Source: Candidatus Saccharimonadales bacterium
GTDB lineage: Bacteria; Patescibacteriota; Saccharimonadia; Saccharimonadales; JACDBH01
DNA length: 48,870 nucleotides
Direction: 5' to 3'
Assembly: GCA_041752595.1 (NCBI GenBank)
Contig: JBGSWE010000009.1
Coordinates: forward strand, 1 to 48,870
Shown here: piece by piece, positions 8,884 to 40,248 of the stretch
How positions within the stretch are numbered: position 1 is the stretch's first letter
How the letters are laid out: each line of letters opens with the position of its first letter
The notes under the pieces: model-generated
What the model saw: only the letters and a program-made list of their open reading frames with translations
The model's database searches: none
What the model was told of the DNA's origin: nothing
Made by a program: the position numbers and the translations under genes

Positions 8884-8930
8884 TACTTCTAGCTTTTTGG
8901 ATTTTTAACTACTTATATAAAGGTTTATCT

Positions 8931-10052: not shown

Positions 10053-10085
10053 AATGATCAACAGGGGTAGGGTGGTTTAATAAAA

Positions 10086-10114
10086 TTGACAAAACCATTG
10101 TAATTTGGTACTAT
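10086..10114 (+). promoter_or_regulatory. sigma70 promoter of the second LysM-CHAP gene
   Basis: TTGACA-17 nt-TACTAT with TG-G extended -10. Confidence 0.75.
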
Positions 10115-10207
10115 CTAACAGCAAAATAACTACATTGTTCTTAAAATGTTTATATTTTGCAAAAGATATTTGAATAATCGAATGAATTATCATTCAGGGA
10201 GCAAGCT

Positions 10208-11335
10208 ATCCGTAGTCTACCCCCGGTAACTGAGCAACTTTCTGTAGTATCTAGCTCAGCCAAATCTACTCGCAACAAACTTCTTCGATCAAGTTCGAAG
10301 TATGCAAACCGAAATCGTAAGCGGTTAGTCCGCTACAGTTTACTAGCTGGCAACATAGCTATAGTTGTTCTTGCTATTGTTTTAGTTATAAATCATTCTA
10401 ACAGTACAAATTCAGCTAATTTTAGCGCTCTAAATACCGCCAATGAAACCAAGGACTCTAATCCATTAGATACCATCTCTTCTGCTGATATAGCAGCAAA
10501 CGTTGCTATAATGGCACGCCTACCTGTAACTGGGTTAATTATTAACGAAGCAGACTCTGTTAGCGCAGATTTAAATGATCCTGTTAGTATTCAAGATGCT
10601 GTATTAAAGCCTCAAATACTTAGCTCTGATATCAAAACCAAGGAAGATATTCTTGAACACTCAGTAGTAAATGGAGATACACTAGCGAGTCTTGCAGTAC
10701 TTTATGGAGTAACGTCTGATAGTATCAAATGGTCAAATAATCTTACTGCAAATAATTTAAAAGCAGGAACGACACTAGTTGTTCCACCTATTAACGGTAT
10801 TGCGTATAGTGTTAAATCTGGTGATACCGCAGATACTTTAGGTAAAAAGTATAACGTACCGGCTGAGCAAATTACTCAATTTAATGATGCAGAACTAGTT
10901 GGGTTGGTGGCTGGTGAAAGAATAGTTATACCCGGTGGAACCGTTAAAGTTGTTGTAGCGCCGAGAAGTAGCACTCCATACTATGCAAATTTTGCTTTTG
11001 GTAACTCAGCAGTATACGGCTATAACGGATATGTGCCGGGCTATTGCACTTGGTATGTAGCAAATAAACGCATTCAAATAGGTAGACCATTACCGGCTAA
11101 TCTCGGAAACGCTGCAACTTGGGACAATTATGCTCCTCAAGGTTGGGATCGATCTCCTCGTGCCGGAGACGCTGTAGTGACCGCAGAGCGCGGTGCGGGC
11201 CACGTTGCGTTTGTTGAACAGGTCAATGAGGACGGAAGTGTCCTAGTGTCTGAAATGAATAGAAGACGTCGTTACGAAGTTACTACTCGTGTATTCAGTC
11301 CAGCTGAAGCCGCAACCTATAAGTATATTCATTAA
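10208..11335 (+). CDS. Membrane-anchored 2xLysM + CHAP peptidoglycan hydrolase, paralog 2 (proposed ATC start)
   Basis: Frame is open from 10178. The part upstream of ATG 10511 encodes RKRLVRYSLLAGNIAIVVLAIVLVI and SNPLDTISSADIAANVA, homologous to paralog 1. CHAP motifs GYCTWYV, LGNAATW, GHVAFVE, SEMN. Confidence 0.88.
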   Translation: MRSLPPVTEQLSVVSSSAKSTRNKLLRSSSKYANRNRKRLVRYSLLAGNIAIVVLAIVLVINHSNSTNSANFSALNTANETKDSNPLDTISSADIAANVAIMARLPVTGLIINEADSVSADLNDPVSIQDAVLKPQILSSDIKTKEDILEHSVVNGDTLASLAVLYGVTSDSIKWSNNLTANNLKAGTTLVVPPINGIAYSVKSGDTADTLGKKYNVPAEQITQFNDAELVGLVAGERIVIPGGTVKVVVAPRSSTPYYANFAFGNSAVYGYNGYVPGYCTWYVANKRIQIGRPLPANLGNAATWDNYAPQGWDRSPRAGDAVVTAERGAGHVAFVEQVNEDGSVLVSEMNRRRRYEVTTRVFSPAEAATYKYIH

Positions 11336-22288: not shown

Positions 22289-22297
22289 AATATATTG

Positions 22298-23161
22298 ATG
22301 GAAAAGATTATTTTATTCTACAAATTCGTTCCAATAACAGATCCAACAACTGTTATGTATTGGCAACGTGCACTGTGTGAAAAGTTAAATCTAAAGGGTA
22401 GGATAATAATTAGTCCACACGGAATTAACGGAACGCTTGGTGGTGATCTAAAATCCCTTAAATATTACACCAGAGAAATGAAGTCCCATCCTAAATTTGA
22501 AAACATTACCTATAAATGGAGCACAGGGGGAACAGAGCACTTCCCCAAGCTAAAAGTAAAAGTTAAAACAGAAATCGTTGCATTTGACGCTGCGGACGAA
22601 ATTATAGTTGGAGAAAACGGTATAGAGAACGGTGGAAAACATCTTAAGCCCCAACAACTCCATAAATTAGTACAGGAACGCGGTGATGAAGTTTTGTTTT
22701 ATGATGGACGTAACATGTATGAAGCTCAAATAGGGCGTTTCAAAAATGCAATTATACCCAAAGTTGTTACTAGTAAAGACTTCAAAGAAGATTTAGAAAA
22801 TGGAGAAATATCAAAATACAAAGATAAGCCCATTGTTACGTATTGCACGGGTGGTATTCGCTGCGAAATATTAAGTGCGATGATGATAAATCGTGGATTC
22901 AATGAGGTATATCAGATGGACGGCGGCATCGTAAAATACGGCGAAAAATTTGGTGATGATGGTATGTGGGAAGGTAAATTGTTTGTTTTTGATGATCGTA
23001 TGAAAATAGGGTTTTCTGACAAATCAAAAGATATCGCGTCTTGTGAAAAATGTGGCGAGAAGACCAGTAATCAAATAAATTCAACAAACGTCAGACGTAG
23101 ACTTCATGTCATTTGTGAAGAATGCAAAGAAAAGAATACTAACAATCAACTTCAGCTATAA
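22298..23161 (+). CDS. trhO: Rhodanese-domain tRNA uridine(34) hydroxylase TrhO/YceA family
   Basis: GRII...GINGT, F.KLKVK, DGRNMYE..IGRF, YCTGGIRCE, W.GKLFVFDDR. Confidence 0.9.
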   Translation: MEKIILFYKFVPITDPTTVMYWQRALCEKLNLKGRIIISPHGINGTLGGDLKSLKYYTREMKSHPKFENITYKWSTGGTEHFPKLKVKVKTEIVAFDAADEIIVGENGIENGGKHLKPQQLHKLVQERGDEVLFYDGRNMYEAQIGRFKNAIIPKVVTSKDFKEDLENGEISKYKDKPIVTYCTGGIRCEILSAMMINRGFNEVYQMDGGIVKYGEKFGDDGMWEGKLFVFDDRMKIGFSDKSKDIASCEKCGEKTSNQINSTNVRRRLHVICEECKEKNTNNQLQL

Positions 23162-23496: not shown

Positions 23497-23610
23497 ATGT
23501 CGTTGCTCGAACTTAGTTGCCTAGCGCAAAAAATAGTCGATCAAAAACGAAACAATCCTGCTTCGTATCTTTTTCTTGAGCCATTTTACTTTAGTGAGAG
23601 CGAAGCGTGA
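23497..23610 (+). CDS. Possible 37-aa leader ORF coupled to the next gene
   Basis: AGAGGTG at 23481-23487; MSLLELSCLAQKIVDQKRNNPASYLFLEPFYFSESEA; TGA overlaps the GTG at 23607. Confidence 0.4.
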   Translation: MSLLELSCLAQKIVDQKRNNPASYLFLEPFYFSESEA

Positions 23611-25100
23611 AAAGGGAGCAAATTACACCTCAAGAAACTCTTGATGAAATCGCAGACGAAATTCGACGAACTGTACGTAATAGCCGCGATCAACAAAGCA
23701 CCCCATATTATAGGCTTGCGGTCTGTGGGTTAATAGCTGGTACGGCTGTTGTAGGAGTATTGGGTAGATTTCATGAAGTTACTAATGAATCAGAAGGCGA
23801 TAGTGAACTTGTAGCAATCCAAGACAGGATGAGTGTTGTTATAAGTGAGCACCAGAAATATGTCTACACACATTATGAAGACGATCAGCCTGGACCAATT
23901 GGAAACCCACAATCTACAAGGGTAGGTATTTTTGAACAGCATATGGAGTATATTCCAGACGGGCTTTTCAAAATGACCGCAAAAGACGACGAAGATCTAG
24001 GATTTTTCGTTCTTATGGAAGAAACAGATGGCGTTACTACTACGCCATTTAAATACGATAAAATAATTTTTTCTGCAGCTAAACCTGAGCCATGCGATAT
24101 GGACACAGTGGATAATAAAATTGTAATTGATGAATATTGCACGCCCCTTGAAGACCCAGAGTCACGTGGTCTGGAATATAGCGATGGATGGCAAGGGGGG
24201 GCATTCTTTAACGATACGAATATTACAGCTCGAACAAGAAGGCTGCATGATATTAAGGTTGGAAATGAATGGTGTGAGCTTGCAATGGTTCATGGCTCAA
24301 CGGGCATAGGTGGGCCAATAACCGAAGTAGTGAATAACGGGACAACCAGTCAAGAGGGTGATTTAAATTTCAATATAAACAATCAGAACATTTCCCCTAG
24401 AAAAGTGTATCTAGGTGTTAGGAGATCAATAATCGCATCTACTAGAAGAGATGCGTCATTACAAACTGGCTTACCACTTACTAATGCCGTAGGAATGCCA
24501 ATCTTTTTAATGCAAGAAGAAGTAGCATTTCTGAAAAGGGTTGCAGAACAACAAGGCAAGCCAATAAAAGATATGACGCCTGCTGAATATAGGTCGGCGG
24601 TTGGACTGGCCAAGATAAGTCTTAGTCAGGAATTTTTCCCAGGAGAAATTGACCCAGGGCCAACACTTGCCATGGAATTGGTTGAGTATTCAGAGAAGGA
24701 TTCAGAAGTGTCGCATCCAGAAAACGATAACGGAGACAAAATTACCGAACAAAACCAATTAACCTATGAAGAAAATTATTATTGTTTGCCATTTACTGAC
24801 ATTGATTCTATTCGTGAGTCTGAGCGTCAATGGTGGCTCAAAGAACAGCTAGGTGAGCTTGACGGGCTACAGCCATTCGCTGCTGCTTATTTACCCGATC
24901 AGCTTGATCAAGAAATTGATTTTGCTGGCAAGGAGCCTGATATGACTGATTGGCCTGTACAGATTGTTAATCTTGATCCAGTTGAAGCCCAAGCAGTAAT
25001 TGATGATTTTATGGTAAAAGCTGGTCTAAAAGAAGCTGGAGATATAAATTCTCAACTAGTAACTTCAGGTAGATTACCTAACTTATTAGGAGAAGATTAA
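23607..25100 (+). CDS. Hypothetical N-terminally anchored acidic protein (497 aa)
   Basis: Hydrophobic LAVCGLIAGTAVVGVLG near the N-terminus; no family recognised. Confidence 0.8.
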   Translation: MKREQITPQETLDEIADEIRRTVRNSRDQQSTPYYRLAVCGLIAGTAVVGVLGRFHEVTNESEGDSELVAIQDRMSVVISEHQKYVYTHYEDDQPGPIGNPQSTRVGIFEQHMEYIPDGLFKMTAKDDEDLGFFVLMEETDGVTTTPFKYDKIIFSAAKPEPCDMDTVDNKIVIDEYCTPLEDPESRGLEYSDGWQGGAFFNDTNITARTRRLHDIKVGNEWCELAMVHGSTGIGGPITEVVNNGTTSQEGDLNFNINNQNISPRKVYLGVRRSIIASTRRDASLQTGLPLTNAVGMPIFLMQEEVAFLKRVAEQQGKPIKDMTPAEYRSAVGLAKISLSQEFFPGEIDPGPTLAMELVEYSEKDSEVSHPENDNGDKITEQNQLTYEENYYCLPFTDIDSIRESERQWWLKEQLGELDGLQPFAAAYLPDQLDQEIDFAGKEPDMTDWPVQIVNLDPVEAQAVIDDFMVKAGLKEAGDINSQLVTSGRLPNLLGED

Positions 25101-25101
25101 A

Positions 25102-26286
25102 ATGTCACGGACTCCAGGCGAATTTTATGAGGATACTAGGGACCGTTACGCCAGACCGCTTGCTTACTCCGCGCTAGCTACAGCAGCCCTAGTTGGACTA
25201 TGGGCTAATACTGATATTCCTATTGTGGAACCGGGTGCTAAATTAGTTGCAGAACAACCACTGCACTTAGTCGGCTTGGTTGCACCATGGGAAAATGACT
25301 ACAACATGAATGAAACAGTTCAGCAAAGCGGTAAATTGACGCTGGACACTTACCTAGGTTCTTTTGTTAACTACACGGAAGCAAGAACTAGCTTGAAGTC
25401 AGAATTACTAGGCGAGACAATTAGCGAATCAAAAACGGCCCGAGAAGGATTAATCGTAAGTAGAATTCGTTTTCCAGGCTTAGTCACTCTGGATTGGGAG
25501 GCTGATGATGAAGTTATGTATCTTTCTAGGTTCGAAGACGGCAAAGAAGTTGGTATTCCCTTAGACAAAGCATTATTTGAAATGCAACAACCAGAAACTG
25601 CAACAGTGCAAAACGGCGAATTTAAATGTAGTCGAGAAATTGAGGATATTGACTATACAGGCTGCATTGAAGCAGATACAGTAAGAGTTGGTTATTTCGC
25701 ATATTTTCCGTTGATTGGTGAAGACCAAGGCAATAATTTACAAATTGCCGGTGAGATATTATTTGATGAGTTTGGCAAAATTGAAGAATGCCATTTCGAT
25801 AACATTTTTATACCTGCTTTTAATGAAATATACGCCGCAAATGGTATTACAAAGCGAATAGATGGGCCTGATGCATATAATGAAGTTATGCGTACTTTTG
25901 TGCGATATTTCATCCGTGAAAAAATTTCAGAAAAAACCCCACCTCAGCGAGTATTCCTAAATATAACAGGCAACTATACGCCAACTCCATCAGTAATTGA
26001 ACGCATCCAGGATAGGGCAGAGGTTGTAGACTTTCCATTTCAACTTGGAGAGGATATGGAGCCAAATTATTGCGCCCAAACTTCAAACGGTTTAATTCCG
26101 ATAACAGTTGTAGGCGAGCAAAATTTAGATAATGCATTACTAAAGATCGCTATCGGAGGTTTAGAGCAAGTTCCTGAAGGTTTTAATATCCAAACTGGTG
26201 GCTTTGAAGATGGCAAGTTTAAGGCGGCTTCCTTAGAAACTGGTCTTGGGGATTTAGTAAAAACTAATGTATTGGGAGGTCGGTAG
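25102..26286 (+). CDS. Hypothetical N-terminally anchored protein (394 aa)
   Basis: AGGAG RBS; 1 nt after the upstream stop; TM PLAYSALATAALVGLW. Confidence 0.8.
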   Translation: MSRTPGEFYEDTRDRYARPLAYSALATAALVGLWANTDIPIVEPGAKLVAEQPLHLVGLVAPWENDYNMNETVQQSGKLTLDTYLGSFVNYTEARTSLKSELLGETISESKTAREGLIVSRIRFPGLVTLDWEADDEVMYLSRFEDGKEVGIPLDKALFEMQQPETATVQNGEFKCSREIEDIDYTGCIEADTVRVGYFAYFPLIGEDQGNNLQIAGEILFDEFGKIEECHFDNIFIPAFNEIYAANGITKRIDGPDAYNEVMRTFVRYFIREKISEKTPPQRVFLNITGNYTPTPSVIERIQDRAEVVDFPFQLGEDMEPNYCAQTSNGLIPITVVGEQNLDNALLKIAIGGLEQVPEGFNIQTGGFEDGKFKAASLETGLGDLVKTNVLGGR

Positions 26287-26287
26287 C

Positions 26288-27205
26288 ATGGCAAACTTAG
26301 ATGAAGTACGAGCTAGGTTTGAACAAAATCCAGTAGTTATCCCAGGTTTTGTTCCTGAATCAACTGAAGCTAGTTCACCTGATCAGCGAGAATTTATGGA
26401 TTCATTTAGCGGAGTAAGCACTACTGAAACTCCAGCAATTAGTACCGAGGCTCAGAGTCAAATAGATGCACTTGAGCAAAGAATAGAAAATCTACAAAAT
26501 GCATTTGTAGCTAGTGGTAACCCACAGGTAAGTCGTGCCGAAACGCTTGCATTAGCAGGCATGGCTAACTCGATTGCAAACAGCACTAGACGTGAACGTT
26601 TAAGCAAAGGTAAAATTGCTGCCATTGCAACAGTCGGTGCAGTCTTAGGTGCTGGTGGTATGTTCCTTTTACTTAAAGACGAGCTTAATGATTACGCGGC
26701 TGCAGCAAACTCATGCGAATTCCCACAACCAAACAACGGTACGCCTTTTATAGAAGACGAAAGCTCTCAAAGCGCTTCCGCATCACCAACTACAGTCGCT
26801 GTTCCACCATCAAATCGAAATGCAGTAACTAATGGCAGTCCAGGAGAAGTCATATCCCCAACAATTGCAGGCAATTTACTATTAGAGGGCGCTGCACCTG
26901 CAATACAAGAATTTAGTGACGGTAGTTTTGTAGAAAGCCAAACAACTTTTCAGTGGAAAACACTTACAGTTAATGAAAGTCACGACAATTATGTTATACA
27001 GCTGCTACAACAAGCTCCAGCTGGTTTTGTTGCAGACTCACGAATGCAAAGATATATAGCTGAAGGAGATTATACGAAAGAGGAGCTATTGCAGTTCCTG
27101 GTTGTAAATAATGCAGTAGATCCAAATGTTTCTTCGGCATTTATTAAACTCGTTGGCTCAGATTCTGAACAGCTAACAGAAATTGTTGTAGGGAGTCAGT
27201 TATGA
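26288..27205 (+). CDS. Hypothetical single-TM protein with short coiled coil
   Basis: GGAGGT RBS before ATG 26288; QIDALEQRIENLQ; TM IAAIATVGAVLGAGGMFLLL. Confidence 0.8.
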   Translation: MANLDEVRARFEQNPVVIPGFVPESTEASSPDQREFMDSFSGVSTTETPAISTEAQSQIDALEQRIENLQNAFVASGNPQVSRAETLALAGMANSIANSTRRERLSKGKIAAIATVGAVLGAGGMFLLLKDELNDYAAAANSCEFPQPNNGTPFIEDESSQSASASPTTVAVPPSNRNAVTNGSPGEVISPTIAGNLLLEGAAPAIQEFSDGSFVESQTTFQWKTLTVNESHDNYVIQLLQQAPAGFVADSRMQRYIAEGDYTKEELLQFLVVNNAVDPNVSSAFIKLVGSDSEQLTEIVVGSQL

Positions 27206-30096
27206 ACCGCGAAGAATTAAGCTTTTTTGAAAAATCTTTGATTGCTGTTCCGGCAGTTGTCATACCAGCTGTACTATTCTTTAGCCAAGAAACGCAAGCC
27301 GCCCCAGAAGAAACACAAGATAGTTCACCTGAAACACAAGCTAAACAACCTCAAGAGGCCGCACTAGTTGAGGCAGAACCTCAAAAACCCAAAGATAACA
27401 CTACACTCACAGTAACGGGAGGTGAAACTAATAATGGTATTGCTGAACGCTATGGATTACCTGTCGAATCTGTACGGCGCGCAAGTGGTTCAGATAGGCT
27501 TGTTGCTGGACAGCAGATTGTGCTTTCGCGACCTGCTGAAACTCCTGCACCAGATGTTGATGAGCCAGAAGAAGATAGCTCAAACAATTTTGAAGTAACT
27601 ACACCTGCAATTCCAAGTCCATCAACTCCTAACAATATCCCAACAACTGAACAGGGTCCCGTAGAGCCTGCACCAGTAGTAAACACAACAGTAACAACCA
27701 CCCCTGAAGTTAGTAATTCTAACGTACAAATAGTTCCAGCAACCAACACTCAACCAACCTTTATAAGCATGCCTTCTATATCCCATACACCTGCAACACC
27801 CGAACAGGCAGAGCCAGATAGCCTAGATTCTAATCAGGCTTCTGCGCAAAATAACGTTGAGTCTATAGTTGCACCGTCAGCAGAAACGGTCGAGATGTCA
27901 AATGCAGTACTTTCTGAAAACCCAGCCGCAAACGCGTACTTTTCACCACCCCCTCAGTTTACCCAATCTTCTAGCGGTCGTAACTTTGTGGCTCCTCGAG
28001 CAAGTAGAAATGACAATTTTATAAGTAGTTTTGCAAACAGTGCAATTAATTTACTTGATGTAGAAAAACTTGAAGATAGCCCAACTCAAGAGACAGCTTC
28101 ACGACAAACCGGTGGTAATCAGCCTTTTGAAGTAATAACAGATGTTCCAACGCGTATTTCGTTTGAAGATGGTGGTTTGACTATTGAAGTTTTGGCTAAC
28201 TCAAATAGCAATTCAAGCCAAAGTGCGCCAAACGGTTCATCAGCTACGCCGACGGTTAACCAAACAACACCAGAATCAGATCCAGTAATTACTATGCCCG
28301 GTGATAGAACAACTACTTCACAGCCAGGTAACATTCCACCACTAACCATAGATCCAGGTGCAATACCTGGTGAATCAACTACGCAGCCAGAAAATAGCTC
28401 AAACAATTCATCTGCTCCACGAAAACAATTAGCCGAGGCGGTAGTAGTAGATTTTCAGGCGGGTGGTAAGCCGGATATAACACCTCTTTATCAAAGTATA
28501 GTTCAAGATCCTACATACAGGGCTCAACCCGAAGGATATTATTTTATGCCACAACCATTAGTTGTTGATGGTGTACCAGAATACTTGTTTAGTAATGGAA
28601 CAAATCGTAGCGAACAACGTGCAAATCCGGAATTAATTGCTGTAAGCTTGGCCGTTACTGAATTTGCTTCTAATCTAAACGGTCCTGAATTCGTTACTGA
28701 GGTAGGTGATTTGAACTCTCTCTATCACAAAGAACATGACGGTGAAAAACCTGCAATAGATCTTAGAAGCCGTGGCATGCAAGACCCCGAAGGCTCAAAT
28801 AATGGCCCTTTGTTTGTAGAAACTAGTCCAAATAGAGACCTGCAAAAACAGTATGCGATGTTGCAGTATTTGCGCAGACTACATATTAACGGCGTACCTG
28901 CCGTTAAGTATGTTATGGGTTATTCTGACGAACTTCTCGAAAGAGCAAACGAAGATCCAGAAATGCGTCGTACCGAAGCTAGGAAAAAGAACTTCTTCTT
29001 ATCTGAAGCAGACCATCAGGAGCATTGGCACATCGCCCTAAATCCAGCAGCTTTCTCGAGGTTGCCGATAGCAGATACTGGTAGCTGTGGTGAGGCTTGT
29101 GGTGATAATTCACCAGGAATTACGACATACCAACAAGCAATTGAGCAAGCACAGCACGTTAGTGTATCTAGTGGCATACAAGGAATAAGTTATGTTGATC
29201 CAGCATCTGGAAATTTGTCTCCCAACAACGACCAACCTATCGAAGATTCTTTTCAACAAAATCCAACTACCGTTGTAGACGTTCAACCGGCTTTGGGTTC
29301 TTTTCTAAATCGACAAGTACTAACACAAGCCGAGTATTGGCTACAACAGCAAGCGATTAGTGCTGGGGTATTGCCAAGGGGTGTAGTTGAAATAAGTCCT
29401 GTAGTTGAAGCACCAGTCGCAGTATCTGCGCCAGAAGTTGTGACTACCGTTGAATCAACTACAGAAAATCGCTACGGTATGCCAGCAGAAGCTTTCGCGC
29501 TGTTAAGTCCCGAGGCCCAAAATTATCAAGTACGTACGCGCGCAGAAGTAGATGCTGCAGTAGAAGTCAATGGCTATCGAAGCGGTAATCTAGATGTAGA
29601 ACGTGCTTACGGGCCAGCAATTAGTTACAACGATATATATGTTTTAGAACGATTTGCTGGCCATAGTCCAATAGAGGCATTCTTATTCACTGGTATTGCT
29701 GGACGCGAGAGTAGTGCCCGTCCGGCCAGTGCTGGTGATTTTCATAACGGGCATGATGGTTCATATGGTTTGCATTCAATACTTACCTACAACGATAAAC
29801 CAAATCCGCTGCGCGACCCTACTACAAACCTAAGCCCTTGGAACAATACTCTCAATGCACGAGAAATGTATCTTCAGTCTGGCTTGAGCCCGTGGGAAAC
29901 TAAAGACATTAGTGAAATATCTGAAGAACAACTTTATGATGCAATCCGACTAGGGCACCGAAATAACGGCAGAGGTGAAGGCGCAAGCTTTGAGGAACAC
30001 TGTCGTAAAGCCGCCCAGCAAGCATATGCAGCGTATCTACAAATGGAGCCTCTTGTATCACAAGCATTGCAAGGGCAAGAGGTGTTAACAGCATGA
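27202..30096 (+). CDS. Secreted or anchored multi-domain cell-wall hydrolase: LysM + P/S/T/N linker + MepA-like Zn peptidase + lysozyme/SLT-like domain
   Basis: LysM-like TVTGGETNNGIAERYGL...LVAGQQIVL; VGDLN..HKEH......IDLR and HQEHWH; IAGRESS..P.....SYGL..I....P..N...A..MY...GLSPW. Confidence 0.8.
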   Translation: MNREELSFFEKSLIAVPAVVIPAVLFFSQETQAAPEETQDSSPETQAKQPQEAALVEAEPQKPKDNTTLTVTGGETNNGIAERYGLPVESVRRASGSDRLVAGQQIVLSRPAETPAPDVDEPEEDSSNNFEVTTPAIPSPSTPNNIPTTEQGPVEPAPVVNTTVTTTPEVSNSNVQIVPATNTQPTFISMPSISHTPATPEQAEPDSLDSNQASAQNNVESIVAPSAETVEMSNAVLSENPAANAYFSPPPQFTQSSSGRNFVAPRASRNDNFISSFANSAINLLDVEKLEDSPTQETASRQTGGNQPFEVITDVPTRISFEDGGLTIEVLANSNSNSSQSAPNGSSATPTVNQTTPESDPVITMPGDRTTTSQPGNIPPLTIDPGAIPGESTTQPENSSNNSSAPRKQLAEAVVVDFQAGGKPDITPLYQSIVQDPTYRAQPEGYYFMPQPLVVDGVPEYLFSNGTNRSEQRANPELIAVSLAVTEFASNLNGPEFVTEVGDLNSLYHKEHDGEKPAIDLRSRGMQDPEGSNNGPLFVETSPNRDLQKQYAMLQYLRRLHINGVPAVKYVMGYSDELLERANEDPEMRRTEARKKNFFLSEADHQEHWHIALNPAAFSRLPIADTGSCGEACGDNSPGITTYQQAIEQAQHVSVSSGIQGISYVDPASGNLSPNNDQPIEDSFQQNPTTVVDVQPALGSFLNRQVLTQAEYWLQQQAISAGVLPRGVVEISPVVEAPVAVSAPEVVTTVESTTENRYGMPAEAFALLSPEAQNYQVRTRAEVDAAVEVNGYRSGNLDVERAYGPAISYNDIYVLERFAGHSPIEAFLFTGIAGRESSARPASAGDFHNGHDGSYGLHSILTYNDKPNPLRDPTTNLSPWNNTLNAREMYLQSGLSPWETKDISEISEEQLYDAIRLGHRNNGRGEGASFEEHCRKAAQQAYAAYLQMEPLVSQALQGQEVLTA

Positions 30097-30213
30097 TTAG
30101 CAATTTAATTCATCATGGCATGTTCTACCTCGATGGATACGGGGAGGGGCGTATGCGGTGAGGAAAGACAACTACTTAAGTAAATTTAAATAATTGAAGG
30201 ATAGGATAAATAA

Positions 30214-30795
30214 ATGAGAAGAGTACAGCAAACCGAAACAGGTGACAGGGTTAAAACAGCTGTTGCAGAAAATAGTTTAAGTGGTGGGCTAATCACAGTC
30301 GCCGATGCAACTGGTAATGCAGTCAATAATACCTACAAAAGCAAATCAGTCCGATTAGTAGCTTTAGGCGCTCTAATTGCTACTGGCGGAATCGTATCGG
30401 TTGCTGCTGGAGTATGGGACGGTGGTAGGACAGTAGTAAGTGGTACCAGAGCAGGCCTTGAGGATGGTATAGATAGAGTTACGGGCGGAGAAGGCGTGAC
30501 AGTCAATGGCCCTAGTGTGGAGTTAGGTGATGAAACTACTGGTGGACAAACCTTCGGCGTAACACCAGCTGGCGAAGCTGCCGCTCCTGTCGAAGCAAGT
30601 GGATCAGCAATTCCACAAGAAACCCTATCACTAGGTGCTGGTGCAATCATTAGATTCTGTGGTGTTGAACCAAACTATGACCCAGCTGTGCTTCAAAGCC
30701 AGTGGCAACCAATTGCAGAAGCAAACCCAGGTGTATTCAACACAGATGTCAATAATCCAAGTATCGATGCAGGCGACCAAGGCTTCTGCTTGTAG
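30214..30795 (+). CDS. Single-TM protein with degenerate LysM-like C-terminus
   Basis: TM LVALGALIATGGIVSVAAGVW; C-terminal WQPIAEANP......NP.I.AG. Confidence 0.7.
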   Translation: MRRVQQTETGDRVKTAVAENSLSGGLITVADATGNAVNNTYKSKSVRLVALGALIATGGIVSVAAGVWDGGRTVVSGTRAGLEDGIDRVTGGEGVTVNGPSVELGDETTGGQTFGVTPAGEAAAPVEASGSAIPQETLSLGAGAIIRFCGVEPNYDPAVLQSQWQPIAEANPGVFNTDVNNPSIDAGDQGFCL

Positions 30796-30823
30796 TTAAC
30801 AAGAAAATTAGGAGTAAAAAATA

Positions 30824-31621
30824 ATGGGACATTTAGACCCTTTGATTGAGCAACAGTTTCGTGAAGCTGCTCAGAGAATTCAACAACAAGAAGCTGCCGA
30901 AATGGCGACAATGGATGGTGATCCCACAAATGTTCGTTTAGAACTAGAGAGAGATCTAAGTTACTTTTTTGGAACAAATAAGCGCAATGCGCATCCTCAG
31001 GCAGGGGTTTTATTTCCTGCCTGTAACCGGGTAGAGAGCGACTATTTAAACGAAGATTTTTTTCAGTTTTACCCTGATCTTTCGAGTTTAAGGCCGGACG
31101 GTAGTGCTATAGGTAGTGAAAACGCTATAAAAGGCGGTTACAAACAAGTGATATCAGTGCCTTATAACCCACATCCAATTCAGGGTGGCATGAAAGCTTA
31201 CGAGCGAGTCGGATTTCTTTACCAAGGAACAAGATTACTAGCTTACACGCATTTTTTTGACCTTGGCGACGGCGTTGGTCCAATAAGTCGTGACGACCAG
31301 GATACTCTAGACAAAGGAGCAGTTTTTTTGGATGATAAAATTATTGTACTAGTACCCCGCGAAGGTTCAGCACCCCAAGCAGGAGTTTTTGCTAACGGAG
31401 AAGAACTACAAGAATTTCTTACAACCCATCTTTACGACGAATTAGATGAACTTACCAGGAAGCCTCACAAAGAAACTACACCAGCGAATCCAGACTACGC
31501 TTCACGTAATGAAAAGTTAGCTCAAAGTGCCAAGACAATAGGTAAATTGCCAGTAGTTTTTGCCTTTAGTGTGTTTGGTAGAAATGATAAAGCTAATTCA
31601 TTTGGGCGTGGTAGGAAATAA
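30824..31621 (+). CDS. Hypothetical cytoplasmic protein (265 aa)
   Basis: AGGAG RBS; no TM or motif recognised. Confidence 0.75.
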   Translation: MGHLDPLIEQQFREAAQRIQQQEAAEMATMDGDPTNVRLELERDLSYFFGTNKRNAHPQAGVLFPACNRVESDYLNEDFFQFYPDLSSLRPDGSAIGSENAIKGGYKQVISVPYNPHPIQGGMKAYERVGFLYQGTRLLAYTHFFDLGDGVGPISRDDQDTLDKGAVFLDDKIIVLVPREGSAPQAGVFANGEELQEFLTTHLYDELDELTRKPHKETTPANPDYASRNEKLAQSAKTIGKLPVVFAFSVFGRNDKANSFGRGRK

Positions 31622-31631
31622 GTAACTTGAT

Positions 31632-32963
31632 ATGAGTCATAGAGAGCACTTACATATTTCTTTAGATCATATAGATTTATTGCGTCGTGGTGATCTAAAC
31701 GCTGCCTGGGAAGCAGTAAACGGAGTGTTCGAAGAGGCTAACGCAGGACTCAACATCTACGAGGTTCCCATGGCATATGCTTTAGTTGATAGCCTAAGAG
31801 ATTCGCAAGGTTTTAATGGTGAGCCAATAGAAGGCATTGGTTTACTGGCTCTTAGAACATATCCAGAAAATTCCAAGCATAAAATTCCAAAAGTATTTGG
31901 CGCAACAGAAGAATTAATTGAGGGTCTAGATGCATCTGGTGAGCGTGTCGTTATGGTTAGAAATAAAAAAGGAGAACTATGGCGTACTCTTCATGTGCTT
32001 AACGCTCGTGGTTTCGATGCGTTGAGTCAGCAGGCCGGTTCAAGCGATTTAATAATTGAGGGCACAAAGTTATCCGAATCAGAAAGCACAATGCTTGAAC
32101 TTTGGGCAAGAAGACAACTAAAAGACGGTAGTGGGTTTTTGCCCGACGCTATTGTAGTAGATGATTTAGGTATAGTTCCACATACTCGCTGGTTACTTAG
32201 ACTATTAACCGAACAGCACACAACATCACTAGAAATGAAAGAGCGTTTGCGCGATTGTGATATTAAAGTAGCTGCAACAGCTGAACAGCCCAAGAGATTG
32301 TTCAATGAAAAACTCGAAGGTTTTATAGACCGTGAAACAACTCGGCTAAGAGTGAATGGTGGAGCCTATACTGTTGACCGGGCTGGTTTTGATACTTTTA
32401 CTGACAACTTAGAAAGAGTGTATCGACACATCGGGAATTACAGTAGTGAAAGTCCAGTGTTAATGAGTTTATCGCAAGACCAATCAATTGCAGCAATTAC
32501 TGGTGTTTTCAGGCTTCGTCTATATGAAATTGGTAAAGAGCTTGCCGAAGCTAAAAGTTTAGGATCTGGCGATCTCCCGGTATTGCTTGAAAGGATAAAA
32601 CAACACGACGAAGAGTCAGTACAAAAACTAAGAGCCTACATTTTTACAAATAAAGATGCCCAGGAATCAACCCACGAGAACAATGCAGTACTTGTTCCTT
32701 CTGATTTTATAGACACATTATGGGAAACAATGGACAGTAGATTTGGCGATAATGTAGTGCTAGCAAGTCATAAGAATGATTTTGATAATCCATATGCAGT
32801 TATATGGTACGGCGAAAGATATTTATTAACATTTGTACCTTCAACTATCGCAGAGCACACATGGCTACACATTGATAGTTTGCCAGCTACAGAAGTAAGT
32901 GATGATGATATAGCTGAATTTAGGGAAGTAATAGGGAAACAGCTCGGTAAAGATAGTGAATAA
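31632..32963 (+). CDS. Hypothetical cytoplasmic protein (443 aa)
   Basis: Long ORF 10 nt after the upstream stop; no motif recognised. Confidence 0.78.
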   Translation: MSHREHLHISLDHIDLLRRGDLNAAWEAVNGVFEEANAGLNIYEVPMAYALVDSLRDSQGFNGEPIEGIGLLALRTYPENSKHKIPKVFGATEELIEGLDASGERVVMVRNKKGELWRTLHVLNARGFDALSQQAGSSDLIIEGTKLSESESTMLELWARRQLKDGSGFLPDAIVVDDLGIVPHTRWLLRLLTEQHTTSLEMKERLRDCDIKVAATAEQPKRLFNEKLEGFIDRETTRLRVNGGAYTVDRAGFDTFTDNLERVYRHIGNYSSESPVLMSLSQDQSIAAITGVFRLRLYEIGKELAEAKSLGSGDLPVLLERIKQHDEESVQKLRAYIFTNKDAQESTHENNAVLVPSDFIDTLWETMDSRFGDNVVLASHKNDFDNPYAVIWYGERYLLTFVPSTIAEHTWLHIDSLPATEVSDDDIAEFREVIGKQLGKDSE

Positions 32964-33019
32964 ATTTATTTTACATTTTGACAACTTAGTATTATTATAG
33001 AACAAATTGAGGAGTGAAT

Positions 33020-35014
33020 ATGAGTGATAATTTTGGCATGGTGCCACCAGCAAGTGGACCAGAATCAATTAAACAGATTTGGGATGACGAACTAGATAGT
33101 ACCCAAAGATACGAACCAATAGTTATTGAGGTTGAGCCACCAAAACCGCAGGCCGAACAAGTTCGCTTAAGTCCATACGCGGGAATGACTCGTATACCGG
33201 AGTCTATTAGAGGCTTTGTGCCTGAAGAATATGTAATTACTATAAACGGCATTGAATTGGTTGACGATATGTTAGTTGGTGTATTAGAAGAAGCCGAACA
33301 AGAGCGTGAACTATTTGAGCGTGATTATGCTCCAGAGGATGTAAGCAATGCCGACAAAGAGTTGTTATTTTATCTTGGTGATGAAGTTTGGCAGGATGAT
33401 AATAATTCCTGGGTAAATTATGCTAGTAGAAAAGCTGTTCGCGAAGCCAAAGAGCGTCTTGAGCGAGATCGAGAAACTTTGCTAACAGCAGAAAATGACC
33501 ATGAGTCACACATTGCATCCAAGCGGCTTGAGGCTGAAGGTACGGTCCTTGATATGTTGGATAGATTTGGAAACTTCAGTCTTATTAAAGAACTGCTTGA
33601 CGATCCAATATATCAGCATCCAGCTGCAGAAATACTGAACTCAGCATACCGTGGAGCTTTGGCGATCTGTCTAGAGACTGCGATTAGTGGTAACGATGAA
33701 GAAGCATCCGGCAGGTTGGTTCAAAAATTTGTTTTAGATAATCTTGAACTTATTGACCGTACTCGTCAAGACGATAAACAAACTCTTCAGTTGAGTGGTT
33801 TTGATCCGGAAGAATTTTATATTGATAAGACAGATGAACAGATGAGACTACACCGTAATGTTGTTGGTTACTATGTTCATTTTTTGCTTACGCATGCACA
33901 GCGTAAATTTTCAATTGATGAATTTGAACAACTCAGAGCCGCTGCCGAAACACCTGATTTATCAGCCAGGCAAAATGGAATTTTTGCACGTTTGCACCGC
34001 AAGATAGTAGAAAAATCCGGTGTAGAAGTAGTAGTAGAACAAACACCAGCCGAGGTTCTACAGTCTAAACTGGATAAAATAATGAACACTCAGTCACATC
34101 AAGATGAGGCGATGGCACGCGCAAACCAAAGGTTGCAAGATCTTTTAAGCGAAAAATCAGCACTGCTTTCAAGTGAAGGTATGACAACACCGATTGATAT
34201 TAATAATCCAGAGAACAACCCACTTCTATGGGTCACAGACAAAGTGCAAGCATACAATAACTTGATGGATTTTTCTGAAGTTACACAAAATTTCAGAGGA
34301 TTTGATGTAGCTGGCGACGGAGTTACCATAAATGGAAATCTGTTAAAAGGCTTTGCAGATATGGTACGAACTGATGATATTGATCGCTTAAGTGCTAGAA
34401 TGGGCGACACAAAAGGTCCGATTGGTCGTAAAATGATTAAAATCGATAAATCTCAAGCATCTAGTGAGTTGGTAAGATTTGAAGACGGTGCAGAGCTTGA
34501 TCTTGGACAATACAGCCAAAGCGAAGAAGAGGCTGTTGCATATGTCGGGATAGTTAGACGCAATCAAGGTGATAGACCATTGAACGGTGCTTTTCTTGTA
34601 GAAGCTTGGCCACACGCCTACAAACCAATTTTTAGCCAAGGACCAGAAGACCCAGACAAAGCAGTTAGACTAATAACCTATCATTTGACCGATGCTATGG
34701 CTGCACTAGTTAGTGCTGACTATATATCATTCTATGCACCTGGTGGTAGGGCTGCACATGGTAATCTAGATGCAAAAATGTTTGATGATCTGTACAGATA
34801 TACGCAACGTGGTATTAAGCCTGGTGTTGATACCTTTAGAGAAGGTATCAGTAAGAGTCGTGATGAAAGCGTACGTGCGTATGTAATACCTAAGTTTGTG
34901 ACTCCTGCCGGTGAATTACCCGTGCCCCATCATAATAGAGGTCAAATAAATCAAACAACTGGTTCACAAGAAATACCCCGCACTCCTAATACAACTGATT
35001 TTTTAGATATCTAA
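33020..35014 (+). CDS. Hypothetical acidic protein (664 aa)
   Basis: GAGGAG RBS before ATG 33020; TTTACA-17-TATTAT promoter-like element upstream. Confidence 0.8.
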   Translation: MSDNFGMVPPASGPESIKQIWDDELDSTQRYEPIVIEVEPPKPQAEQVRLSPYAGMTRIPESIRGFVPEEYVITINGIELVDDMLVGVLEEAEQERELFERDYAPEDVSNADKELLFYLGDEVWQDDNNSWVNYASRKAVREAKERLERDRETLLTAENDHESHIASKRLEAEGTVLDMLDRFGNFSLIKELLDDPIYQHPAAEILNSAYRGALAICLETAISGNDEEASGRLVQKFVLDNLELIDRTRQDDKQTLQLSGFDPEEFYIDKTDEQMRLHRNVVGYYVHFLLTHAQRKFSIDEFEQLRAAAETPDLSARQNGIFARLHRKIVEKSGVEVVVEQTPAEVLQSKLDKIMNTQSHQDEAMARANQRLQDLLSEKSALLSSEGMTTPIDINNPENNPLLWVTDKVQAYNNLMDFSEVTQNFRGFDVAGDGVTINGNLLKGFADMVRTDDIDRLSARMGDTKGPIGRKMIKIDKSQASSELVRFEDGAELDLGQYSQSEEEAVAYVGIVRRNQGDRPLNGAFLVEAWPHAYKPIFSQGPEDPDKAVRLITYHLTDAMAALVSADYISFYAPGGRAAHGNLDAKMFDDLYRYTQRGIKPGVDTFREGISKSRDESVRAYVIPKFVTPAGELPVPHHNRGQINQTTGSQEIPRTPNTTDFLDI

Positions 35015-35031
35015 ACCACCAAATACTGTAA

Positions 35032-37026
35032 TCAACTTTGGGCGAGGCGTGCTTGATTGGCTTGTTCAATACTACACCAAGACCCAATTAGTGGGGCTAT
35101 AGCAGCCGCAGTAACTTTTGCTGGCCTATTTCCACCATCAGATTCACTACCGAGTGATGTTAGGCTTCCTGGCTGGCGTTCGATAACGAAAATTGTCTTG
35201 TTTCTACCATTTTCATCACAAAAAACTGCACTATTAGCGGCAGAAACATTGTTAGCAGCAGTACCCGTTTTGTCGGCTATCTCTGTGCTTCCTGCTATTC
35301 CTGCAAAAGCATTTGCTGCTGTTCCCGATTCAATCACGCCAGTCATCATTGCTGTAAGTTGTACGGTGAGTTCTGGTGGATCAATTTGTTCAAAAACAGG
35401 CGCAACGTATTCTGATACTTGACCATTATCCAGCTGAAAACTATTTACAAAGCGCATATCGCTATCTTGTCCCTGACGAGCTACGGTTTTCTGAACGGCC
35501 ATGGCGCGTTCCTCTGGTGTAATTTCTTGTCCTCCAAGAATAATGGCAGGGCCAACCAATCCACCAGGTTCCATGTCCAGTGTTTCCATTCTACTGAGTG
35601 TGGTGGATAGGATAGGGTCACCAGCTTCTTCAAGCCGTTTTACTTCACCTACAAATGCACCATTCACAGACTTTTCTAAAGATATCTCTAGAGTACAGAT
35701 TCTGTTTGGGCAATGATTAGTCTCAGTAACGCTATAGTTGCGTCCGTTACCATCATAATTTAGCCACTCCACGCTGTCTGGATCGGGCATTGGGGACTGG
35801 CTAGTGTAGCCTCGCTCTAAAAGTTCCATAACAAAATGAATTTTATCAAGCGAACCACCAATGACCGGTGACTCAAGTAAGTTTACGTTTGGACCATTTT
35901 TTTCGTATAAACCAGGAATATATCCTGTTACAGCGCCACTATCGTCAATGAACATAGTCCCATATTGGCGTCCGTCGGCTGGCAAAGGAACACTTTTGAT
36001 TGCATTTTGAAGCGCTGTTTGATCTTTCTTTAGTATTGTCGAACGAATGCGTACATTACTAGCCATTAATTCGTCATAGCTCATGCCGCTGGCTTTTATG
36101 ACCTGCTCGATAATTTCATCCACCACCGCTCGTGCATTTATACTATCTGCTTCTGCATAATTACTACCAACTCTAGATTGTGGGGAGTATGGTAATCTTG
36201 TGAGCGGACGCATTTTGTATTCATCTGCTTGTGCTTGAGTAAGCCTACCTAACTCAACTTGATTCTGTAGTACTTCATTACGTCTTATAATTCCATTATC
36301 ACGCGCAATCTGGTCTTCATTAGCATTTTCTTTTGGCGCATATTTTTCTGGATTTTGCAGTGCACCAACCAAGAAAGAAGCTTCATCAATTTCTAACTGG
36401 CTGGGGTCCTTGCCAAAATACATCATACTAGCTTCATATATGCCGTATGAACCATTGCCCCAATACATAGAGTTAAGATAGAGTTTTACAATTTCAGTAT
36501 CTGCAAAGGCATCGTCTAGTGTCGGAGCTATCTCAAAAGACTCCCAAAACTTTCGAGAAATAAGGTTATCGGGTACATCACCAATGTAATATATGCGACT
36601 TAACTGTTCTCTGATACCAGAGCCACCCCTTGGATTGCCCCTTAATGTATCGACGGCTGCTTTGAGGAGACCCATAACATTTGGTCCATTGACCTCACAA
36701 TATTCGCGGTCTTCAGTACTAAAAAGCGCCCAAATTAGATCTGGATCAACTTGCGAGGATAATTCTTCCTTCACCATAACGCCTTCTGTGCAAACTGCAG
36801 GAATTGTATCAACTGGTGTAGAGTTGCCGCTACGTATTTGCGCAAGTGGAGTAGTACATTCAGGATCGTCGTCATAACAGACAGTGATACTGCCTAGAGG
36901 TGTAGCCTCAGGGCTAGGCTGGGGCAATTCTGTCGAACAGCTTGCAAGCACACTGGTGCCCAAAAAGGCTCCAACTCCAAGCACTCTCATAAGACGATTG
37001 CTTTCTGCAACAACACCCTGTTCCAT
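35032..37026 (-). CDS. Divergent class A penicillin-binding protein (GT51 + transpeptidase) with lipobox
   Basis: VLASC lipobox; GT motifs TEDREY, GGSGIREQL, RKFWE, YLN..YWGNGSYGI..AS..YFGK; TP motifs SLDK, SVN, KTGT. Confidence 0.88.
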   Translation of the reverse strand: MEQGVVAESNRLMRVLGVGAFLGTSVLASCSTELPQPSPEATPLGSITVCYDDDPECTTPLAQIRSGNSTPVDTIPAVCTEGVMVKEELSSQVDPDLIWALFSTEDREYCEVNGPNVMGLLKAAVDTLRGNPRGGSGIREQLSRIYYIGDVPDNLISRKFWESFEIAPTLDDAFADTEIVKLYLNSMYWGNGSYGIYEASMMYFGKDPSQLEIDEASFLVGALQNPEKYAPKENANEDQIARDNGIIRRNEVLQNQVELGRLTQAQADEYKMRPLTRLPYSPQSRVGSNYAEADSINARAVVDEIIEQVIKASGMSYDELMASNVRIRSTILKKDQTALQNAIKSVPLPADGRQYGTMFIDDSGAVTGYIPGLYEKNGPNVNLLESPVIGGSLDKIHFVMELLERGYTSQSPMPDPDSVEWLNYDGNGRNYSVTETNHCPNRICTLEISLEKSVNGAFVGEVKRLEEAGDPILSTTLSRMETLDMEPGGLVGPAIILGGQEITPEERAMAVQKTVARQGQDSDMRFVNSFQLDNGQVSEYVAPVFEQIDPPELTVQLTAMMTGVIESGTAANAFAGIAGSTEIADKTGTAANNVSAANSAVFCDENGRNKTIFVIERQPGSLTSLGSESDGGNRPAKVTAAAIAPLIGSWCSIEQANQARLAQS

Positions 37027-37124
37027 GCATATACTAAACCACAATATTAGTGTAATTTGCAAATTATAGTAGTCAGGTTGCATGTAAACGGACATAACAG
37101 ATAAAATTAGGTACAATAACTACT

Positions 37125-38633
37125 ATGATTTCAGATAATTTGACCAAGAAACTTGCCCAGCTCCCCAAAGAGCCAGGAGTTTATTTTCATAAGAACAATA
37201 AGGGTGAAATTATTTATGTCGGAAAAGCTGCGGTTCTTAAAAACCGCGTCAGGCAATACTTTCAGGCATCACGTAATCGTGACCCTAAGACCGAAGCTCT
37301 AGTTGCTGAAATAACAGATGTGGATTGGATTACTGTCGAAAGCGAAATAGATGCCTTATTCTTAGAAGCCGAAATGATTCGTAGGTATATGCCGCGCTAT
37401 AATATTTTACTTCGTGATGACAAATCCAATACTTATGTGAGGATAGACATAAAGAGCAACTATCCCAGTGTTACCTATACCAGAAATCCAATGGACGACG
37501 ACGCGCTGTATATAGGGCCATATATATCAGCCGTTAGTGTTAAGCGCGCGCTTAAATATTTACGAAAGATATTTCCTTATTCAATCCACAGCGTATTACC
37601 AAATAGGGCATGTTTACAATTTCATTTAGGTTTGTGTCCGGGTCCTGAAACTGGTAATCTTGATTCGCAGAAATATAAAACTGATCTCAAGAAACTGATT
37701 ATGTATCTTAGGGGTGACCGGATAAGACTTATGAATCAGCTAGAAAAAGAAATGCTGGACTATTCAAAGAAGAAAGATTTTGAACACGCTGCAACTTTAC
37801 GAAATGAACTTATCGCACTTAAAAACTTAAACCGACAAATAATATTTAGCGATACTGAATTTATGGACCTAAGCCGTGATCATGCACTTAATGATTTAAG
37901 CGAGTTGCTAAGTCTAGAAAAAATTCCTAGACGAATAGAGGGCTATGATATTTCACATATGTCTGGTACAGATACGGTTGCAAGCATGGTTGTATTTACG
38001 AATGGAGTTTCAGATAAAGGTTCTTACCGTAAGTTTAAAATGCGTATTCCCGGTAACGATGACTTTGCCCATATGCATGAAGTGCTTGAACGTCGACTTA
38101 GTGAGAAACATGCAAAAGATTGGCCAAAACCTAATCTATTTCTGATAGATGGGGGTAAGGGTCAGTTAAGTAGTGCGTTAGACGTATTATCCTCGCATAA
38201 TGTTTTTATTCCTGCAATTGGACTAGCAAAGCAGTTCGAAGAAATAATTATCAAAAAAGATTGGCCGTATTTGCAACTTAATCGCAGTAAATTAGAAGAA
38301 TTAAACGGTACTGCATTAGAAAATGATGAATTTATATCTCTTAGGCTACCTCATTCATCTCATATTATTAAACTATTACAGAGAATACGTGATGAATCGC
38401 ACAGATTTGCTGTAAGTTATCACACGGTCCTTAAAACAAAACGACAAGTAAGTAGTGCCTTAGACGATATCCCTACAATCGGGCCTGAAACACGCAAAAA
38501 GCTATTAAAAACTTTCGGTAGCTATAAAGGCATCGAGCAAGCTAGAGATTTTGAACTTATAAAGGTGGTGGGTGAAAAGAAGGCTACGATATTACGTCAA
38601 TATATGAGACCTTATCGCAAAAATGAGTTATGA
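37125..38633 (+). CDS. uvrC: Excinuclease ABC subunit C
   Basis: GIY-YIG (PGVY..IIYVGKA), RIEGYDISH, LIDGGKGQ, RIRDESHRFA, HhH. Confidence 0.97.
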   Translation: MISDNLTKKLAQLPKEPGVYFHKNNKGEIIYVGKAAVLKNRVRQYFQASRNRDPKTEALVAEITDVDWITVESEIDALFLEAEMIRRYMPRYNILLRDDKSNTYVRIDIKSNYPSVTYTRNPMDDDALYIGPYISAVSVKRALKYLRKIFPYSIHSVLPNRACLQFHLGLCPGPETGNLDSQKYKTDLKKLIMYLRGDRIRLMNQLEKEMLDYSKKKDFEHAATLRNELIALKNLNRQIIFSDTEFMDLSRDHALNDLSELLSLEKIPRRIEGYDISHMSGTDTVASMVVFTNGVSDKGSYRKFKMRIPGNDDFAHMHEVLERRLSEKHAKDWPKPNLFLIDGGKGQLSSALDVLSSHNVFIPAIGLAKQFEEIIIKKDWPYLQLNRSKLEELNGTALENDEFISLRLPHSSHIIKLLQRIRDESHRFAVSYHTVLKTKRQVSSALDDIPTIGPETRKKLLKTFGSYKGIEQARDFELIKVVGEKKATILRQYMRPYRKNEL

Positions 38634-39885: not shown

Positions 39886-40248
39886 ATGAAAAGTCCGTTT
39901 AACAGGTTTTTACTTAGGTGGTTTGTTTGTTCGTTAGGCCTGTGGATTGCAGCAGGATTCTTAAACGAAAGTATAGGTTACAATGATCAGCCAGTAATAA
40001 TTATTATTGCCGGCTTTATACTCGCTGCGATTAACACTGTTATAAAGCCTTTAGTTATTTTGCTGAGCTTACCAGTCATATTATTTAGCCTTGGACTCTT
40101 TATGATAGTCATTAATGGTTTCATGGTTTTACTGGTTAGTTACATATATAAACCACTCGAAGTATCAAGTTTTGGCGCAGCAATGCTTGTGGGTGTTATA
40201 ATAGGAATAGTAAATATATTAGTGACGGCAATAGTTGAGGAAGTATGA
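39886..40248 (+). CDS. Phage-holin-family (YvlD-like) 4-TM membrane protein
   Basis: NTVIKPLVILLSLP..LFSLGLF..VING. Confidence 0.88.
   Translation: MKSPFNRFLLRWFVCSLGLWIAAGFLNESIGYNDQPVIIIIAGFILAAINTVIKPLVILLSLPVILFSLGLFMIVINGFMVLLVSYIYKPLEVSSFGAAMLVGVIIGIVNILVTAIVEEV

Follow-up and report, generated by a model that had tools for sequence, protein, structure and literature searches.

A predicted secreted wall hydrolase with two catalytic domains in a variable trhO-uvrC slot of Saccharimonadales, possibly directed at the host wall

Cultured Saccharibacteria depend on hosts, and two open questions about this dependence, how these bacteria gain access to a host with thick peptidoglycan and what underlies their narrow host range, are touched by a locus in the genome of a Candidatus Saccharimonadales bacterium (GCA_041752595.1, hereinafter G000; 889 kb, 98.8% complete). 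The locus lies in a stretch of 48,870 nucleotides (contig JBGSWE010000009.1, or C9, forward strand; hereinafter the window), which contains, between trhO and uvrC, a gene for a 964-amino acid (aa) protein combining a LysM-like, a MepA-like zinc peptidase and a lysozyme-like domain. Is this protein aimed at the wall of a host or at the wall of the cell that produces it? The reading that we favor, at a little better than even probability, is that of an accessory secreted enzyme with two cutters that opens the wall of the host bacterium. Below, labels starting with G denote genomes, P database proteins, L loci, C contigs of G000 and X sequencing runs.

The open reading frame (ORF) of the hydrolase remains open over 964 codons without an internal stop, and its ATG overlaps the stop of the preceding gene (ATGA). 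A preliminary description, made from the letters of the DNA, had proposed this ORF as a hydrolase with the three domains named above on a long disordered stalk; the ORF is real and all the motifs quoted in that description are found in the protein, with HQEHWH located at 29014-29031 as given, but VGDLNSLYHKEHDGEKPAIDLR, which had been placed there as well, lies at 28702-28767 (aa 501-522). Whether the protein is scanned whole or in domain pieces, every Pfam match stays under the family's cut-off; the whole protein yields only a weak LysM match, and the domains were scored after the protein had been cut into pieces.

Of the two predicted activities, that of the peptidase appears the surer, judging by conserved residues and the fold model. 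Among 24 aligned middle domains, D503, H509, H512, D520, H605 and H608 are invariant and H610 is conserved in at least 90%, and the signature H-x6/7-D plus HxH recognized in the letters is thus present and conserved. The pattern of MepA is HxxH-x6-D ... HxxHxH, and we take the conserved residues to correspond to the MepA zinc ligands and catalytic histidines, residue numbers for which were not found in the literature. The model of the middle domain (predicted local distance difference test, pLDDT, 92.2) has Escherichia coli MepA (1u10/1tzp) as its top Foldseek match (E 3e-4, probability 1.00) and also as its first match in VIA-align (Z 10.0, root-mean-square deviation 3.8, 156 aligned residues), followed by Hedgehog, VanX and Ply500 (7.5, 5.3 and 5.1, respectively), as expected for the proposed MepA-like zinc endopeptidase. 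With MepA, a LAS zinc D,D-endopeptidase of the M74 family, the modeled domain shares the fold and the HxxH-x6/7-D ... HxxHxH pattern; it differs in sequence (13-16% identity), in a His-Asp spacing of x7, one residue longer, and in being embedded in a 964-aa protein. Because neither PF03411 (M74) nor NCBIfam NF006947 matches the middle domain, we file it as MepA-like, on the basis of the model, and not as a member of M74, the profile of which matches only 3 of the 24 aligned domains; the nearest Atlas clusters carry M74 in 13% of their members, which is to be taken as a lead only. Neither the single domains nor the MepA-like profile gave a meaningful match in sequence searches of solved structures. 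According to a review (PMC6403190), E. coli MepA cleaves the cross-link between D-Ala and meso-diaminopimelic acid (meso-DAP), and M74 domains also occur in fusions with LysM, amidase and SLT1 domains. The LysM, M74 and SLT type of architecture is already known; the domain combination is accordingly of a known kind, and the new part is the swappable trhO-uvrC slot.

The model of the C-terminal domain (pLDDT 92.7, 17 rows) matches c-type lysozymes and lytic transglycosylases, with a best Foldseek E-value of 7.9e-3 and a best Z of 8.7; the top rows of the fold searches are all lysozyme-fold proteins, each with a modest score, in agreement with the lysozyme/SLT-like domain of the preliminary description. 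When the family profile is aligned with fly lysozyme (E 0.0019), Glu836, which closes the core helix, falls on the lysozyme Glu (within Glu-Ser-Ser), and this position is Glu in all 19 aligned rows. Opposite the Asp of fly lysozyme stands Ser854, a position at which 16 of the 19 rows have Ser and two have Asp; the second carboxylate of c-type lysozymes (GH22), Asp52 in hen lysozyme, is accordingly lacking. The SLT_3 family (PF18896) scores 15.7 bits against a cut-off of 27 (E 0.022) on this domain, and the close relatives P0002, P0005 and P0007 pass that cut-off. The domain has the fold, the Glu, the G-L-x-Q-I region and the PW motif in common with SLT_3 and c-type lysozymes, from which it differs in its extra N- and C-terminal helices. 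The HS that had been noticed in place of the usual xQ is indeed there; most of the family keeps the Gln (16 of 19 rows), and for this reason activity of the glycan domain is less sure than that of the peptidase.

The N-terminal hydrophobic segment, also noticed earlier, spans aa 13-27; the protein has no other, and TQAA and then an acidic stretch rich in proline come after it. In the hydrolase and in 16 of 17 rows this segment is closed by small-x-Ala (judged by eye; two of the rows are near-duplicates), and in 5 of the 17 rows it begins 25-104 residues inside the called ORF. This suggests a cleaved signal peptide and makes a membrane-tethered stalk doubtful, in which case the linker would join LysM to the cutters and not the cutters to the membrane. 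Thus, of the stalk reaching from the cell, the linker of about 300 aa rich in P/S/T/N/E is borne out (aa 110-404, 62% P/S/T/N/E/Q) and the tether is not. The LysM-like repeat is present as a single copy that falls narrowly short of the Pfam cut-off (PF01476, 20.6 bits against 20.9, E 4.4e-4); it is 39% identical over 70 aa to that of P0002, and the LysM domains of P0002 and P0005 exceed the cut-off. A beta-rich linker motif at aa 308-332, considered as common to the relatives, was dropped given that 91 of 300 shuffles scored as high and its hidden Markov model version had no match.

The slot itself varies widely in content. In G000, it holds the hydrolase, seven other unnamed genes and a divergent penicillin-binding protein (PBP), altogether a 14-kb run. 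Among 13 genomes of the family with both flanks, a hydrolase is present in five (G000, G006, G008, G011 and G013), small other genes occupy the slot in four, and the remaining four, including G001 of the same genus as well as G004, G005 and G015, have no ORF of at least 100 aa, trhO directly abutting uvrC. For the order, we also sampled, independently of the MepA-like profile, 60 of the 110 uvrC-matching genomes, in order of decreasing score and leaving out genomes examined before as well as some with a short upstream region. Of the 60, 51 had trhO within reach: 24 with a gap of less than 300 bp, 7 with a wall-hydrolase domain and 20 with other cargo (domains were scanned for in the 32 ORFs of at least 200 aa). 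Three of these seven hydrolases combine a peptide and a glycan cutter by Pfam (one below the cut-off), three have a second domain recognized by eye, and one is a lone SLT domain. Neither the MepA-like nor the C-terminal domain profile matched any of the 60 genomes, and slot hydrolases therefore extend beyond the family of this hydrolase. The peptide cutters encoded in the slot are MepA-like, amidase, VanY and M23 domains, and the glycan cutters SLT_3, SLT, GH73, GH19 and phage-tail lysozyme, sometimes with an SGNH domain. The MepA-like profile matched 49 of 401 genomes of the order, once each, and, across the phylum, 9 of 401 genomes, 5 of these outside the order (one of the latter, G547, is unpublished, as are G003 and G016 among the scored genomes; none of the other statements made here depends on these three). 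Of the 49 domains, 21 are in the slot (with one or both flanks seen), 16 are within 4.5 kb after virB4 and 12 are unplaced. We found no description of the trhO-uvrC slot or of the MepA-like clade in Saccharibacteria in a search that covered mainly the open literature; some preprint supplements could list such proteins.

The exchange of catalytic modules is apparent also among the closest relatives. With aa 404-964 as the query, 17 proteins, the query itself among them, were retrieved from 1.84 billion representatives. Among the proteins sharing the C-terminal domain, the middle domain is MepA-like in P0003, P0004, P0006, P0008 and P0012, amidase_2 in P0010 (Pfam) and in P0002, P0005 and P0007 (own profile), and amidase_2 together with M23 in P0011 and P0013; conversely, MepA-like domains are partnered with GH73, SLT, SLT_3, GH19-like, phage-tail lysozyme and SGNH domains. 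In the SLT-domain tree, the MepA-like P0012 and the amidase P0010 are sisters at 100/99, that is, sister proteins with different peptide cutters, and the MepA-like label must have changed no fewer than three times to agree with the starred branches. Catalytic module swapping among the relatives is thus shown by sequence comparison. P0009 agrees with the G353 protein in its length and in the coordinates of its domains, and the G166 protein is almost the same as P0011. SGNH esterases can strip the O-acetyl groups that block glycan cutters; the 964-aa hydrolase itself has no SGNH domain.

The slot hydrolases stand apart from the wall hydrolases linked to type IV secretion. In a quick tree of the MepA-like domains, with long branches present, a single branch separates the 16 virB4-linked domains, without exception, from 20 of the 21 slot domains, including this one (Shimodaira-Hasegawa-like approximate likelihood ratio test 98). 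In G000, virB4 is on contig C6 and the hydrolase on C9, that is, outside the virB4 gene cluster; on C6, virB4 is followed by genes for two proteins, of 973 and 616 aa, both with matches among the virB4-linked proteins of relatives (for the 616-aa protein, the match covers the SGNH and lysozyme regions). C6 thus has virB4-linked candidates of its own, and the slot hydrolase is an addition to them. This type IV secretion locus (G000:C6:11643-21114) lies beside dnaA/dnaN and includes a PrgI-like gene, virB4 and the genes for the 973-aa and the 616-aa protein; the 616-aa protein has SGNH-like, lysozyme-like and probable M15-type regions. Another virB4-linked protein (L060:9693-12479, G295) is a single polypeptide with SGNH, GH3, phage-tail lysozyme and M74-like domains. 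Like the slot hydrolases, the VirB1-like hydrolases encoded at the type IV secretion locus in Patescibacteria (SEML1_0006; PrgK and TraG of Gram-positive plasmids) are multi-domain peptide and glycan cutters; unlike them, the slot gene is accessory, is not at virB4 and belongs to a separate clade. For the recognition of hosts by Saccharibacteria, pili adhesins have lately been pointed to (bioRxiv 10.64898/2026.10.06.756255), and the type IV secretion locus is described as essential (PMC10633639). In Southlakia epibionticum, SEML1_0006, with two lysozyme-like domains and one cysteine-proteinase domain, is called essential, SEML1_0006-0008 are all listed as essential, and the phage-tail lysozyme gene SEML1_0667 as non-essential; the supplement rows do not contain the string 'M74' (PMC10633639). 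VirB1-like multi-domain hydrolases are also treated in PMC12102498, where peptidase and lysozyme homologues after virB4 are given as essential in S. epibionticum. LysM proteins of oral TM7 have been described (PMC7739484), and further related literature is available (PMC10936435; bioRxiv 10.1101/2024.02.27.582363).

The features of the window are listed in the table. One contig of the public run X1, possibly the source of the assembly itself, spans the whole hydrolase region; one contig of X3, from the same study, covers 27977-31157, both catalytic domains included, with zero differing letters; and X4, from a second study, holds diverged pieces in all 30 bins of the region. According to the database records, the full holders are hot-spring metagenomes of one study, and no RNA run is among the listed holders. 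A word-index protein search with the hydrolase returned only the query itself, and two metagenome contig scans yielded no confirmed relatives.

Features of the trhO-uvrC slot and of the hydrolase gene (positions in the window)
Feature	Position	Strand	Basis
trhO, left flank of the slot	22295..23161	+	NCBIfam NF001133 above cut-off
Three unnamed genes (497, 394 and 312 aa)	23607..27205	+	one hydrophobic segment each, by eye
Gene for the 964-aa hydrolase, predicted secreted multi-domain peptidoglycan hydrolase	27202..30096	+	ORF call; one-sequence cluster on 2 contigs
Likely cleavable signal peptide, hydrophobic aa 13-27, end near Ala33/Ala34	27202..27303	+	hydropathy, relatives by eye; inferred
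Single LysM-like domain, aa 68-108	27403..27525	+	Pfam PF01476 just under cut-off; similarity to P0002
Linker of low complexity (about 295 aa), probably disordered for the most part	27526..28410	+	composition
MepA/M74-like LAS zinc peptidase domain, aa 404-625	28411..29076	+	alignment, fold model, structure searches
Second linker, aa 626-756	29077..29469	+	composition; no family match under E 0.1
Lysozyme-like domain of SLT_3 type, aa 757-964, with additional helices	29470..30093	+	model, fold searches, profile alignment
Four unnamed genes 3' of the hydrolase	30214..35014	+	first two also 3' of the gene in G009
Divergent class A PBP paralogue, inside the slot	35032..37116	-	
uvrC, right flank of the slot	37125..38633	+	Pfam

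The three genes that precede the hydrolase have no Pfam, PHROG or NCBIfam name and occupy the same position in G166 and G353 (24-31% identity); this single-pass membrane-like trio goes with the hydrolase in these genomes (L038 and L039) despite the different catalytic modules. Directly 3' of many slot hydrolases, there is a gene for a membrane-anchored protein of 300-380 aa without a Pfam name (for instance, L010:3229-4194, L045:4141-5118 and L043:11267-12307), a candidate scaffold or immunity partner. The membrane proteins beside slot hydrolases form clusters of 14, of 4 and three of 3 (the latter including window genes), and profile comparison linked none of these clusters (best probability 7.6%). 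The PBP paralogue of the window has SxxK, SxN and KTG-like motifs recognized by eye, and its glycosyltransferase motif 1 is altered. Several other genes in or near the slot deserve mention. The slot of G141 contains a Pup-ligase gene (PF03136; L110:16606-17991) of the actinobacterial type, possibly host-derived. A 120-aa Phage_holin_4_2 gene (window 39886-40248) follows uvrC-pepP and is kept in most of the loci examined, outside phage context. In L074 (G010:C2:6375-7973), the uvrC match is split within a single 539-aa frame, suggestive of an in-frame insertion of about 37 residues.

Under the reading that we favor, the hydrolase would be exported by the Sec pathway and released by signal peptidase; LysM, given its borderline match, may hold it on peptidoglycan, and the linker of about 295 aa would let both catalytic domains sweep a patch around this anchor. 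The MepA-like zinc domain, by its modeled fold and motif, would cut D,D cross-links (a substrate taken from E. coli MepA), and the lysozyme-like domain might cut the glycan with its single Glu in the style of lytic transglycosylases, which is unsure with Ser in the place of Gln; together, the two cuts could weaken or breach the wall at the point of attachment. Module swapping, which is seen among the relatives, would then adapt the enzyme to hosts that differ in wall chemistry. We favor a host target because a conserved own wall would give little reason to swap or drop cutters, whereas varied host walls would; the patchy and swappable distribution helps the inference of host-wall attack made in the preliminary description. 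For housekeeping, G000 has other wall enzymes, namely MltG/YceG and two LysM-CHAP proteins, the latter encoded in tandem after mltG/yceG (window 8874-11335); GH73 and SLT (PF01464) were not found in this genome. Host-wall roles have been proposed for hydrolases of another predator in the Patescibacteria, and the predatory wall hydrolases of Vampirococcus and Bdellovibrio are alike in their proposed use on a foreign wall (PMC8080830). Several observations weigh against this reading. The lysozyme-fold Foldseek matches are above E 0.001 and a Z of 8.7 is close to the level that the tool regards as common; Ser859 replaces the motif Gln; only 4 of the 16 inner branches of the SLT-domain tree are starred and most forks are not settled; and slot proteins served as seeds of the MepA-like profile, so that it is biased toward finding slot proteins. 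The slot also takes unrelated cargo (a sortase, a kinase, transporters of the major facilitator superfamily) and may be just a recombination-prone site, and it is empty in about half of the genomes, so the enzyme is not a general route into the host. Finally, the own wall pathway of G000 (four Mur ligases and a class A PBP), which it likely uses to make its own wall, and the PBP paralogue in the slot fit self-remodeling.

An autolysin that remodels the wall of its own cell together with the PBP paralogue and the island membrane proteins, for example during budding or swarmer release, is indeed the alternative that we consider with most care, even if it seems rather unlikely. It agrees with the presence of a peptidoglycan pathway in G000 and with a PBP paralogue adjoining the hydrolase not only there but also in G166, G006, G013 and G164; furthermore, LysM cannot tell the self wall from that of a host, and E. 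coli MepA itself is an autolysin (PMC6403190). Nevertheless, most slot hydrolases have no adjoining PBP, the slot lacks a hydrolase in the same-genus genome and in many others, and module swapping is unexpected for a conserved own wall. The meso-DAP motif of MurE is DNPR, and MurE of G000 (C3:7634-8926) has EEDDR where it would stand, a weak hint that the own cross-link may differ from the MepA substrate. An enzyme of scavenging or competition, digesting dead or non-host walls for amino sugars and amino acids, would likewise have a cleaved signal peptide and would solubilize the wall fully with its two complementary cutters; the oligopeptide-binding protein (SBP_bac_5) encoded three genes after uvrC could be brought into this scheme, but it is conserved irrespective of a hydrolase in the slot, and a single-copy swappable enzyme suggests a narrow target and not bulk digestion, which leaves this explanation improbable.

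No more probable is a protein with an inactive or weak glycan domain, in effect a wall-binding adhesin with one working endopeptidase. The rows without the motif Gln are the hydrolase (Ser), its G009 orthologue (Ala) and P0003 (Met), and there is no second carboxylate at the position of the lysozyme Asp; still, Glu836 is kept throughout, the G009 domain is 54% identical over about 205 aa, which indicates constraint, and catalysis with a single Glu is normal for lytic transglycosylases. The least probable origin, which we would hardly credit, is from a prophage or conjugative element that integrated between trhO and uvrC and left its lysin behind. Endolysins and tail lysins of phages mix and match catalytic and binding modules in the manner seen here, the nearest Atlas clusters of the C-terminal domain are SLT/SLT_3 clusters that are mostly viral (a lead only), and viral structures match weakly (best E 1.9e-3). 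Against this stand the lack of a PHROG match under E 0.1 for any of the seven unnamed island genes, the lack of a tblastn match to 50,697 phage records, the absence of a tRNA and of long flanking or att-like repeats at the slot, and the position of the hydrolase away from virB4. The G+C content at third codon positions of the island is within 1.4 standard deviations of the genome mean, and the island genes are 24-33% identical to their G166/G353 counterparts, compared with 57-74% for trhO and uvrC; given these low identities and the ordinary composition, the island appears to be old and fast-evolving rather than newly arrived. The slot hydrolase differs from phage lysins, and from the Vampirococcus and Bdellovibrio hydrolases, in being chromosomal, likely Sec-secreted and encoded at a fixed locus of an epibiont lineage, with no phage context found.

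A broader proposal, which we put forward tentatively, is that the trhO-uvrC slot is a dedicated site for a secreted chassis with interchangeable, host-fitted cassettes, one for cutting peptide and one for cutting glycan, at times with an SGNH domain that removes O-acetyl groups, accompanied by unnamed membrane partners. Should only the own wall be remodeled, the hydrolase would be an ordinary modular autolysin. Under the host-wall reading, the slot represents a further class of wall hydrolases, accessory and fixed in its locus, which Pfam for the most part fails to recognize, and a source of divergent wall-cutting domains; if the cassette proposal holds, the content of the slot would act as a determinant of host range and would predict the host wall type for uncultured lineages.

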